Below are positions 455 to 52,145 of a stretch of DNA of 64,000 nt, piece after piece; the first letter of the stretch is position 1, and every line of letters starts with the position of its first letter. The notes beneath the pieces were generated by a model, which was given only the letters and a program-made list of their open reading frames with translations, ran no database searches and was not told the DNA's origin. Source of the DNA: Octopus sinensis (taxonomy: Eukaryota); the NCBI RefSeq assembly GCF_006345805.1, contig NC_043008.1:13330001-13394000 (forward strand), given 5' to 3'. Both the position numbers and the translations under genes were made by a program.

Positions 455-760
455 ATAATACAAAAGGGGGACAAGAACGCAAAACATCCAGACAACTAGG
501 TGATACAAAAAGGGACAACAAAACATCAAGATAGACGACACAAAAAAAAAAAAAACAAGGACGGGTCATTCGAAGATTTTTATCCTTAGTTAAGAATTGG
601 ATCATCCTCGGAATTTCGGCTGATTAATCTTCAGATTGCTCCAATATAGCCAGCCCCAAGGAAAAACTAAGCTAAGAGCATTAGATTCCTGGAAAAAAGC
701 ATCGAATGTATACGCAAACAAGGACGGAAAAACAGACGATGTTACACGAATATGAATACA
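455..760. mobile_element. Microsatellite-embedded interspersed repeat (family E), copy 1
   Basis: Clear similarity to 39592-39850 (gggacaagaacgcaaaacatccagaca..taggtgata.aaaaagggacaacaaaacatc...aaaacaaggacg.ggtcatt...gagcattagattcc). Flanked by TA/CA and TAA repeats. Class unknown, possibly Penelope-derived. Confidence 0.7.
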
Positions 761-10094: not shown

Positions 10095-10380
10095 AATATA
10101 TGTATACATGTAGTTCAAATTTACAGAAAACAAAAGACTAAGACAGGAGAAGGAACTACAGGCAGGTGTGTTAGTTTAACACTCAGGAAGAATGGAAAAG
10201 TGTTGGACGTTTCGAGCCTATGCTCTTCGAGGGAAAGGTTTAAGAAGGAAAAAAACGAAGAGGGAAGTATACGAAAGGGAGAGAGAAAATGTGTACGGAT
10301 TAACGGTTGGACATGACGAAAGATCCAGAAGAAAGAAGCTGAATGAAAGGGAAATAATAACAGTGACCCGGTCGAACTAG
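10095..10380 (-). mobile_element. Family F repeat carrying a hammerhead relic, copy 1
   Basis: Homologous to 34826-35015 and 40560-40805 (tttacagaaaacaaaagac..agacagg...gtattagtttaac.ctc.ggaag...acgtttcgagccta.gctcttc). The minus strand at 10202-10237 reads CUUU CCCUCGA A GAGC auag GCUC GAAA CGUC. Confidence 0.75.
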
Positions 10381-39510: not shown

Positions 39511-39591
39511 TGCGTGTGTGTGTGTGCGTGTGTGTTTGCGTGTTTATATGTACATATAAGTGTACGTACACCGCTATTAATATATATTTAA

Positions 39592-39848
39592 TATAAAATG
39601 GGACAAGAACGCAAAACATCCAGACAGTTAGGTGATATAAAAAGGGACAACAAAACATCCAGATAGAACATACAAAGAAAACAAGGACGTGGGTCATTTG
39701 GAGTTTTCTTTCCTCAGTCGAGTTCCAGATTATCTTTGCAATTTGGGCTGGTTATACTCGGGTTTGCTCCAATCCGTCCAGCTCCAAGGAGAAACTAAGA
39801 GCATTAGATTCCTTGGAAGGAAGCAGCAAATGTATACAGAAACAAGGA

Positions 39849-39850
<2 letters not shown>
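39592..39850. mobile_element. Microsatellite-embedded interspersed repeat (family E), copy 2
   Basis: Homologous to 455-760 and followed by (TA)n. Confidence 0.7.
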
Positions 39851-40181: not shown

Positions 40182-40245
<64 letters not shown>

Positions 40246-40249
40246 ATAT

Positions 40250-40548
40250 AGAGGGCATTATTACACATACATGCCACACGCTAAGAGGGACATTAGTCAT
40301 TTCTACCAAAAAATGTTACTAATCACACCCAATGCAATTTTTCAAAGCAAGACATTTAAAAAATGAATTTAGTCTTGTATCACCTGTGATTTCGTACTTA
40401 CCGCAGTTGCGACCGTACTCATCAGCAAGACTGATTCTGAACATATCATAAATAAACGACCCCGTACCGTCAAAGCCGAACAACTATCTGCTCCACTCCA
40501 ACGAAGCACATGGGGAAGTTTACACATAATACATCCGGTAAATGGCAG
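40250..40548 (-). mobile_element. ~300-bp non-coding hammerhead-bearing element in (TA)n (retrozyme or solo Penelope pLTR candidate)
   Basis: Unique sequence bounded by (TA)n on both sides, containing a complete hammerhead and no meaningful ORF. Confidence 0.7.
40364..40437 (-). ncRNA. Type I hammerhead ribozyme, canonical core
   Basis: Minus strand reads gaauc AGUCUUG CUGAUGA GUAC[ggucgcaacugcgguaa]GUAC GAAA UCAC[ag]GUGA UA CAAGACU aaauuc. All core nucleotides are present. Stem I 7 bp plus an extension, stem II 4 bp, stem III 5 bp. Predicted AUA cleavage between 40378 and 40377. Confidence 0.92.
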
Positions 40549-40559
40549 ATATATATATA

Positions 40560-40805
40560 TGGTTGAAATTTACAGAAAACAAAGACAGGTGTAAAAACAA
40601 CAAGCAAATGTATTAGTTTAACACTCGGGAACGTGAGACTTTTACGTTTCGAATCTACGCATTTCAAGAGAAAGGAACACGAGGAGATAAACAGATAGAG
40701 TATGAAAGACATCTTTTGGAGCTAATGGTCCATCATGACGGCTGGCTGGACAAAGGTAGTTAAACAGGCCAAACAAAGAAGAAGGGAGAAAATAAACCGA
40801 AGGTG
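40560..40805 (-). mobile_element. Family F repeat carrying a hammerhead relic, copy 3
   Basis: Homologous to 10095-10380. The minus strand at 40639-40674 reads CUUU CUCUUGA A AUGC guag AUUC GAAA CGUA AAAG. Confidence 0.75.
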
Positions 40806-40889
40806 TACGTGCGTGTATTTGAGAGTGTGTGTATGCATGCAGGTGTGTATGTGTGTATGCATGCATATGTATACACAAATATATGTGTA

Positions 40890-49335: not shown

Positions 49336-50296
49336 CATATATATATATATGTGTATGTATTGTATATATAGTGAGAAGAATCGATATTATTTAAGAAAAA
49401 GTTTCTATAATTTCAAGATTTTATCTTATTAATATTAATCTTTCAAATTTTGCTGCGCTGAAATCTAAATTAGGATTTTCGTAGCCTAATGATATCAATT
49501 CCTTCTGGGATCTAATGAATATTCCAAAATTTATTCGGCTTCATTCACGGATTAGAATTATATAACCTGCGCAGATATTGCACCAATTTTTCAAGTTACC
49601 TTAATAGTTTAATTCTTTCATATTTACTTATATGAGTTGCGAGTGCATTGGTACAAAGAGTGCAACACAAATTTCTGTTTATACTCACGCTACTCTTAGG
49701 TTTCAATGAAATATATTTATTAACTATACTTAAATAATCATTATATTGTCAACAACGCTTGTTTTCCGGGAAATGGAAAACATTTTCGATGCGTCATTTG
49801 AATAAGAATATCAAGATATTTTTCTCTGCAAATAATTGTTCCAATCAAAGTCACATTTCTATATAGAATGGAGAAATCTTTCGTCACAATTCCCCCCAAA
49901 ATTTGAATTTCTGAAAATGAATTATCAACTGATCGCTTAGATGCTACACATATTTTTTTCCTCAATCAAATATCACCATATATTACGCACGAACCTTGTG
50001 TATTTGACCTCAAATAAAATTTATTTAGTTACTATGAAATCTGTGCCCAAAATACAAAACCGATGTATTAAAAAATATTCAAATCGCAGTTTATATATGT
50101 ATTAAGAAAGCATCGCGCAGTGAAACGTTGTCAGTGTCTCTTTTACCACATACAACGGTACCAACTTGTACCACTTTTCCACATCGATGACCAACTACAC
50201 CGGCACAGCTACCACCATCATCATCATCCTTAGCATCAACAACAACAATAGCGGCATTATATTTATCACTCTCTTTATCAACAACTTTATATTATC

Positions 50297-51284
50297 TATT
50301 TCTTTACTACACAGAAGGAGCTAAACACAGAGAAGACAAACAAGGACAGGCAAACGGATGAAGTCGATTATGTCGACCCCAGTGCGTAACTAGTACTTAT
50401 TTAATCGACCCCGAAAGGATGAAAGGTAAAGTCGATCTCGGCGGAATTTGAACTCAGAACATAGCGGCAGACGACATACCTATTTCTTTACTACCCAGAA
50501 GGGGCTAAACACAGAGAGGACAAACAAGGACAGACGAACGGATCAAGTCGATTACATCGACCCTAGTGCGTAACTGGTACTTATTTAATCGACCCCGATT
50601 AAAAGCAAAGGATGAAAAGCAAAGTCGACCTCGGCGGAATTTGAACTCAGAACGTAGCTGCAGACGAAATACCTATTTCTTTACTACCCACAAGGGGTTA
50701 AACACAGAGGGAACAAACAAGGACAAACAAACGGATCAAGTCGATTATATCGACCCTAGTGCATAACTGGTACTTATTTAATCGACCCCGAAAGGATGAA
50801 AAGCAAAGTCGACCTCGGCGGAATTTGAACTCAGAACGTAGCTGCAGACGAAATACCTATTTCTTTACTACCCACAAGGGGTTAAACACAGAGGGAACAA
50901 ACAAGGACAAACAAACGGATCAAGTCGATTATATCGACCCTAGTGCATAACTGGTACTTATTTAATCGACCCCGAAAGGATGAAAAGCAAAGTCGACCTC
51001 GGCGGAATTTGAACTCAGAACGTAGTTGCAGACGAAATACCTACTTCTTTACTACCCACAAGGGGTTAAACACAGAGGGAACAAACAAGGACAGACAAAC
51101 GGATCAAGTCGATTATATCGACCCTAGTGCATAACTGGTACTTATTTAATCGACCCCGAAAGGATGAAAAGCAAAGTCGACCTCGGCGGAATTTGAACTC
51201 AGAACGTAGCTGCAGACGAAATACCGCTAAGCATTTCACCTGGCGTGCTAACGTTTCTGTCATTATCGTCAGCTCATTATCGCC
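50297..51284 (-). mobile_element. SINE family B pentamer: one head plus five tandem 184-bp bodies
   Basis: Unit starts at 50297, 50481, 50674, 50858 and 51042 (periods 184, 193, 184, 184). Single head at ~51226-51284. Confidence 0.95.
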
Positions 51285-51731: not shown

Positions 51732-52145
51732 GGCGGCGAGCTGGCAGAAACGTTTGCACGCCAGGCAATATGCTTAGCGATATTTCGTCTGTCGCTACGT
51801 TCCTAGTTCAAATTCCGCCGAGGTCGACTTTGCCTTTCATCCTCTCGGGGTCGATTAAATAATTACCAGTTATGCACTGGGCTCGATATAATCGACTTAA
51901 TACGTTCGTCTGTCCTTGTTCGTCCCCTCTGTGTTTAGCCCATTGTGGGTGGTAAAGAAATAGGTATTTCGTCTGCCCCTACGTTCTGAGTTCAAATTCC
52001 ACCGAGGTCGACTTTGTCTTTCATCCTTTCGGGGTCGATAAATTAAGTACCAGTTACGCACTTTTGTTTATGTAATCAACTTAATCCATGTGTCTGTCCT
52101 TGTTTGTCCTCTCTATGATTAGCCCCTTATGGGCAGTAAAGAAAT
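51732..52145 (+). mobile_element. SINE family B dimer: one head plus two bodies
   Basis: Head ggcggcgagctggcagaaacg, with the junction aaagaaataggtatttcgtctg at ~51955-51975. Confidence 0.93.

Follow-up and report, generated by a model that had tools for sequence, protein, structure and literature searches.

A hammerhead retrozyme in the octopus genome with the insertion anatomy of Penelope-like elements

What is a complete hammerhead ribozyme doing between runs of TA in an octopus genome, to what kind of element does it belong, and how does that element get about? The questions are raised by a stretch of Octopus sinensis DNA (the window, 64 kb in all), in which an earlier note, made from the letters alone, had picked out a self-cleaving RNA of a 'retrozyme or Penelope family'. 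Hammerhead (HHR) repeats without an ORF have been described as common in invertebrates, and in coral, mussel and axolotl such RNAs cleave themselves and are found as circles, with Penelope-like elements (PLEs) suggested as their helpers (portions of PMC7229834). This link has so far come from co-occurrence and from similarity of pseudo-LTRs (pLTRs) (portions of PMC7229834 and 10.64898/2026.07.22.740005), and in vertebrates from co-occurrence and pLTR phylogeny, with the mechanisms of mobilisation named as future work (same portion of 10.64898/2026.07.22.740005). Our own answer, to which we would give a probability of about 0.7, is that the window contains a likely self-cleaving hammerhead in a truncated non-LTR retrozyme, which is probably copied in trans into (TA)n by a Hydra-like Penelope RT-endonuclease. 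What is new here is the insertion anatomy, which supports the published proposal that Penelope-like elements may mobilise retrozymes; the kind of element is already known, and the ribozyme is otherwise ordinary.

Is there a hammerhead in the window?

Indeed there is: a complete type I motif can be read on the minus strand at 40437-40364 (Table 1), with a CUGANGA, GAAA and UH core, three helices and an open stem I, all seven pairs of which are formed (AGUCUUG, 40432-40426, with CAAGACU, 40377-40371). The extension of this stem, GAAU/AUUC beyond a C/AA internal loop, is present just as claimed. The three perfect helices of the earlier note held for stems I and II, but its version of stem III (AUCAC/GUGAU) includes a pair made from the final A of GAAA and the U of UH; the hairpin that it saw within loop II is there, but as five pairs including wobbles (GUCGC/GCGGU, 40413-40400) rather than as CGC/GCG. 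With hammerhead numbering as we take it to run, the AUA triplet at 40380-40378 puts the predicted cut between 40378 and 40377, where it had been expected. The consensus used for this predicted bond is that in the portion consulted of PMC4209133.

Table 1. Features of the hammerhead locus, in positions of the window
Feature	Position	Strand	Basis
Type I hammerhead ribozyme motif, extended stem I	40364..40437	-	Motif reading, fold, covariation, descriptor
Stem I 5' strand AGUCUUG, partner 40371-40377	40426..40432	-	Pairing; covariation
Catalytic core CUGAUGA	40419..40425	-	Sequence reading
Stem II GUAC/GUAC (4/4 paired) and 17-nt loop II with hairpin	40394..40418	-	Pairing, covariation, subfamily alignment
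GAAA (40393-40390) and near-palindromic stem III, monomer or dimer helix	40379..40393	-	Fold, pairing
AUA triplet 40380-40378 and predicted scissile bond	40377..40380	-	Hammerhead consensus
5'-truncated single-arm copy of the 479-bp unit, ending at the short 3' end	40251..40548	-	Genome comparison
(TA)n tract at the 3' end, inferred target	40189..40250	.	Sequence reading
Short (TA)n at the 5' junction, inferred other side of the target	40549..40560	.	Sequence reading

Chance is a poor explanation of the motif. A descriptor that demands at least five pairs in stem I, three in stem II and two in stem III matched this one site in the whole window, and 300 dinucleotide shuffles of the 64 kb, searched on both strands, yielded one loose match and none that was equally strict. 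The Rfam search that had been proposed as a check was of no help: at the gathering score nothing matched the window's hammerhead, and below threshold RAGATH-1-hammerhead appeared at the motif's place with 16.5 bits and an E-value of 8.7, in a list for the window that consists mostly of TA-repeat miRNA artefacts. The long loop II is a likely cause of this miss.

What kind of repeat carries the motif?

The motif belongs to a short tandem repeat with one type I hammerhead per unit, whose period between neighbouring copies is 479 bp (482 in subfamily C). The unit has 33-34% GC and no protein-coding capacity (the stop-free frames of a tandem stretch reach 55 aa at most), and no LTR layout was seen in the family. 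Copies are both dispersed and gathered in tandem arrays: the 297 nt round the ribozyme have at least 48 matches in the 2.72-Gb genome (40 of 2,268 candidates scored), and exact patterns taken from the 5' half of the window-type ribozyme, from the 18-mer downstream and from the 3' half with either loop III gave 91, 148 and, genome-wide, 2,568 matches respectively, each with none for the reversed control. We distinguish three subfamilies, namely A, to which the window copy belongs, B, and C, which stands at about 80% identity by blastn and supplies most copies and arrays of up to about 35 units. The hairpin in loop II is a 13-nt insertion exclusive to A, the place of which is taken by a GUAA loop in the others, and among the A haplotypes that of the window's ribozyme is the most frequent, occurring in 21 insertions. 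One B array (L063, C1:112.632-112.634 Mb) is rearranged to a period of about 606 bp, each repeat having one whole and one broken ribozyme.

Since each tandem unit leads straight back into the next and an ORF is lacking, the evidence favours the first of the two identities offered by the earlier note: the family is an ORF-less tandem repeat with a hammerhead, that is, a non-LTR retrozyme. The metazoan non-LTR retrozymes, in the descriptions compared, likewise have a type I hammerhead in each ORF-less, low-GC tandem unit, thousands of copies, a highly paired predicted circle and autonomous PLEs in the same genome. The differences are a longer stem III here and a unit of 479-482 bp, against ranges of 150-450 (PMC7229834) and 51-972 (10.64898/2026.07.22.740005) in the portions compared. 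The words 'inverted' and 'cephalopod' do not occur in the main text of PMC7229834, nor do 'hammerhead' or 'ribozyme' in the main text, as far as available, of an octopus repeat annotation (PMC13282606).

How are the insertions built?

Our first sample comprised 105 distinct insertions from pattern and similarity searches, biased to subfamilies A and B. Their 176 arm ends fall mainly at two fixed sites, 87 at the one that we call short and 71 at the other, called long, with 15 elsewhere and three at locus edges; TA follows 146 of the 158 ends at either site. The two sites lie 129 nt apart, and no other part of the unit is as well conserved between A and C as this tail (122 of 128 columns). Two head-to-head arms are present in 57 of the 105 insertions, and where both ends could be classed, 45 of 47 pairs had one short and one long end, the others being one long+long and one short+short (P 8e-12); in 10 more inverted pairs an end could not be classed. 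Another 60 loci then supplied 58 new insertions, of which 38 came from the first 100 matches listed for the 3' half and 20 from another search; here 38 of 38 classed pairs were short+long, or 35 without three duplicated blocks, and seven pairs were unclassed. Over both samples the rule is obeyed by 80 of 82 distinct inverted pairs. The 5' ends are spread round the unit; piles of them at unit position 1 and at 85-88 are probably artefacts of query boundary and subfamily divergence.

This is the signature to be looked for in something mobilised by a PLE, with 5' truncation, an inverted head-to-head arm, a tail at one end and a microsatellite target all found. The Hydra-clade PLEs in particular, in the portion of PMC8557442 compared, share the (TA)n target, a canonical hammerhead, partial tandems, an inverted 5'-truncated arm and a one-end tail; they differ in that our unit has no ORF and in a tail of 129 nt, against the 30-40 nt described there for PLEs. 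That inverted PLEs have a tail at one end was already known (portions of PMC8557442 and PMC3846280). By comparison, neither a (TA)n target nor a pair of fixed ends nor inverted arms were found in the retrozyme descriptions compared (in PMC7229834 and 10.64898/2026.07.22.740005), and a literature search returned no report of this repeat family, of the short+long rule or of PLE-type ends on a retrozyme, although supplements may hold such.

Could the family instead be a satellite that spread as DNA, by unequal exchange or extrachromosomal DNA circles, or else by means of a LINE, its ribozyme being a relic? Birth of satellites from pLTRs by local expansion has been proposed (a portion of 10.64898/2026.07.22.740005), and there is one array here (L282, L138 and L283; C2:8.216-8.234 Mb) of about 35 tandem units, forming one insertion, that is mosaic at recurrent sites in a manner unlike copying from one template, through gene conversion or assembly collapse. 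However, even this array has one short and one long end, and the retrozyme agrees with the genome's PLEs in having fixed, paired 3' ends, 5' truncation at evenly scattered points, head-to-head inversion and a TA target, with no poly(A). We regard the satellite account as very improbable for the family, with dispersal by this route, or by a LINE, largely refuted and growth of the longest arrays a possible place for it. When both arms are taken together, the units of one insertion differ by 1.2%, a figure to which the C2 array contributes the majority of pairs, as against 3.9% between insertions.

And the copy in the window?

The window copy is a 316-bp piece that runs from unit position 1 to about 298-314, with the remainder missing, so that 40250-40548, which had been offered as the element to transcribe, represents only about 300 of 479 nt. 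Its 3' boundary is blurred by the element's own TATATA at the short end, the match reaching 40233. It is a single arm with the short end, broken off after about 300 nt, and since it has just one ribozyme and lacks the tail it is probably a dead end; as a partial monomer it falls short of the two units by which 10.64898/2026.07.22.740005, in the portion compared, defines 'active'. No PLE ORF was found in the 64-kb window.

Two other repeats flank the copy (39590-39850 and 40560-40810), each beside TA runs, and recur elsewhere in the window (457-725; 10113-10238) and in 8-11 of the loci examined; to the eye they look like decayed Penelope-type ends. Further along, at 50296-51225 and 51781-52145, there is a 184-bp unit in tandem, which is unrelated to the hammerhead repeat.

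Does the ribozyme matter to the element?

For the alignment we took 68 of 95 distinct ribozyme regions (from 157), leaving out by eye those that were indel-heavy, truncated or near-redundant. Pairing was kept in 96.9% of stem cells, against 21-40% in slid controls, and pair-preserving helix variation is thus present among the copies. Four pairs have changed on both sides, two in stem I (A and B versus C) and two in stem II, a count reached in 144 of 500 shuffles and hence no better than shuffles; the remaining covariation scores are inflated by kinship and come down to about four events. The core-and-stems test was passed by 111 of the 157 regions; core conservation is not counted as evidence, since most loci were found through patterns that contain the core. 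In subfamily C, the bulk of copies, stem II starts from a G-U, A-U or U-U base, and such weakened bases would speak against full activity in every copy; an axolotl retrozyme with U-U at this place nonetheless cleaved, weakly and better as a dimer (a portion of PMC7229834).

Folding brings the dimer question to the fore. The minimum free energy (MFE) fold of the 74-nt ribozyme has -19.5 kcal/mol (z -2.5) and keeps stems I and II, with the core paired to the 5' strand of stem III; the catalytic monomer fold, at -16.4 kcal/mol, lies 3.1 above it, with an ensemble probability of 0.0014. A 2-nt loop is barred by the folding model, so that stem III of the monomer becomes four pairs with a CAGG loop, a marginal hairpin of +0.4 kcal/mol compared with -11.2 for the homodimer. 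Stem III is near-palindromic in both main subfamilies, and the predicted energetics make action as a dimer through this stem plausible, in keeping with the dimer regulation described for metazoan hammerheads (a portion of PMC4209133). Folded as circles, the units are 66-68% paired (z -5.6 and -6.2, 60 shuffles each), a highly self-paired predicted form. Both this predicted circle and the changes by which stems I and II keep their pairing suggest that RNA structure is under selection; the motif likely self-cleaves, and we call it functional by inference from structure and covariation.

The same helper and the same element would, of course, also serve if the template were an uncleaved linear multimer transcript, with the ribozyme a passenger or no more than a trimmer of RNA, and with no role for circles. 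In green anole Poseidon, hammerhead mutants had no effect on insertion in vitro (PMC11167929), and in subfamily C the base of stem II is often weakened. We also took 75 arms, picked by the downstream 18-mer on C1-C17, and of the 68 that reach the cut site 64 read through it; this read-through, like the homogeneity of arms, fits a linear multimer as well as a circle. Four arms stop at the cut site, where 1.4-1.6 are expected (P 0.05-0.08), which is a weak hint of cleaved templates and counts against the linear multimer, as do the selection on RNA structure suggested by stems I and II and the paired circular fold, and the circles made by coral, mussel and axolotl relatives (a portion of PMC7229834). 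On balance we consider an uncleaved template unlikely, and keep to a retrozyme whose ribozyme would take part in its copying.

Which Penelope elements could help?

The genome contains three young PLE families that are candidate helpers. PLE-A, with identical 138 aa in at least 26 places (150 scored), has a 947-aa open frame, a hammerhead motif of its own and, like the retrozyme, ends at two sites in (TA)n, here separated by 122 nt. PLE-C (L198-L211) and PLE-D (L327-L333) have frames of 717 and 727 aa and tails of 73 and about 71 nt. The three are mutually 36-44% identical over the main aligned blocks and display, by eye, the RWK, DKT, CxCX5C, CxxC and CxH motifs, a C-terminal endonuclease and a (TA)n target, with F replacing the second C in several copies of PLE-D; Pfam found nothing above cut-off in helper ORF pieces, those of PLE-A included. 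Those motifs have been given as marks of the Hydra clade, whose members have (TA)n as their target (a portion of PMC8557442), and by motifs and target all three appear Hydra-like. Their inverted pairs are again short+long, in PLE-A (4 of 4), PLE-C (8 of 8 readable) and PLE-D (4 of 4 among those listed).

Some details of these families may be recorded here. The PLE-A copy at L128:4498-9010 (C17:13.318-13.323 Mb) has asparagine-rich inserts in its 947-aa frame, of a sort described in rotifer PLEs (a portion of PMC3846280), together with a 3' UTR of 1.55-1.67 kb and a hammerhead loop II of about 55 nt. Roughly 1 kb away from one retrozyme insertion, and not joined to it, is a relative of PLE-A (L109:158-971; 70% aa across the start of the ORF) that likewise carries a hammerhead motif. 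The hammerhead-like motif of PLE-C reads CCGAAGA with an extra U before GAAA and is missed by the strict descriptor, and the hammerhead-like core of PLE-D has a very weak stem II.

Is the unit simply the pseudo-LTR or 3' UTR of an autonomous Penelope-like element yet to be found, its copies being truncated debris? Ends, tail, inversion and target are all of PLE type, the 163 insertions examined are to be set against 2,568 ribozyme matches in the family, and in one case (L030) the unit lies directly beside an old RT fragment of like orientation. Against this, PLE-C and PLE-D enter a 5' UTR and ORF past the long end, whereas the retrozyme unit goes back into the unit in every multi-unit arm examined; none of the 163 insertions continues into the start of a same-sense RT and GIY-YIG ORF, a tblastn search with PLE-A and PLE-C detected no unit that leads into the start of an ORF, and other copies of the L030 RT family lack the unit within 1.5 kb. 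We therefore hold a hidden autonomous parent to be improbable. The four families PLE-A, -B, -C and -D were themselves rejected as parents, since blastn found no nucleotide similarity between them and the unit, and alignments of the tail with those of PLE-A and PLE-C were at shuffle level (930 and 826 of 1000 shuffles scoring as high); the PLE-D tail was compared by blastn only.

The retrozyme, then, would be copied in trans, and two chimeras join it to different PLE families. In L003 a unit arm stands head-to-head with a 370-aa frame of PLE-A, and in L215 a unit arm leads through a 40-nt fold-back into a PLE-D arm, again head-to-head; both junctions have small templated duplications. Both chimeras are short+short, against the rule, and are accordingly events involving two RNAs or deletions between nested insertions. 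In L114 the unit and PLE-D lie within one TA tract. We did not count L030 as a chimera: its RT fragment is old, in the same sense and without a 3' end, and insertion plus deletion is likelier.

Non-autonomous parasites of PLEs are not without precedent. The MRC1-type elements of Chlamys are also ORF-less and inserted as multicopy head-to-tail arrays, but their 3' ends resemble that of the autonomous partner, and hammerheads are absent from most elements of Chlamys (a portion of PMC8557442), whereas our unit has a hammerhead and no detectable similarity to the partners found. A further comparison is with Poseidon PAc of the green anole, in which two internal RT start sites define the PLE tail in vitro, AT-rich DNA is nicked on both strands, the protein is predicted to be a dimer and hammerhead cleavage is dispensable in vitro (PMC11167929). 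Two tail-defining sites and an AT-rich target are common to both, the start sites and the nicking of both strands being proposed in this octopus from genome sequence; the difference is that in vitro the strands did not differ in start site (PMC11167929), whereas here one site per arm is a nearly strict genomic rule.

How might the cycle run, and what would it mean?

In the cycle that we propose, transcripts of the tandem arrays would be cut to unit length by their ribozymes, which may act as dimers by way of stem III, and the resulting RNA would be circularised. A Penelope protein would then bind the structured 129-nt tail and nick both strands of a TA tract, and cDNA would be primed from the two ends of the tail, one for each strand. 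Copying would run round the template for anything from part of a unit to 11 or more units, whereupon head-to-head joining of the two cDNA ends would complete the insertion.

A more specific version is attractive but tentative, and we would sooner bet against it than for it: that a dimeric Hydra-clade protein, seated on one circular ribozyme RNA, primes rolling-circle RT at two sites 129 nt apart, one per TA strand, the rare short+short chimeras being two-RNA events. If this were true, retrozyme insertions would record the Penelope mechanism itself, and multi-unit arms joined head-to-head as short+long would be explained; and if the chimeras with two Hydra families are indeed two-RNA events, trans-mobilisation would be promiscuous. 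A retrozyme that bears the PLE insertion signature together with a nearly strict end rule constrains a PLE mechanism that is still open, and since the genome holds young helper candidates of 947, 717 and 727 aa, the question can be put to the test in an existing in vitro system.
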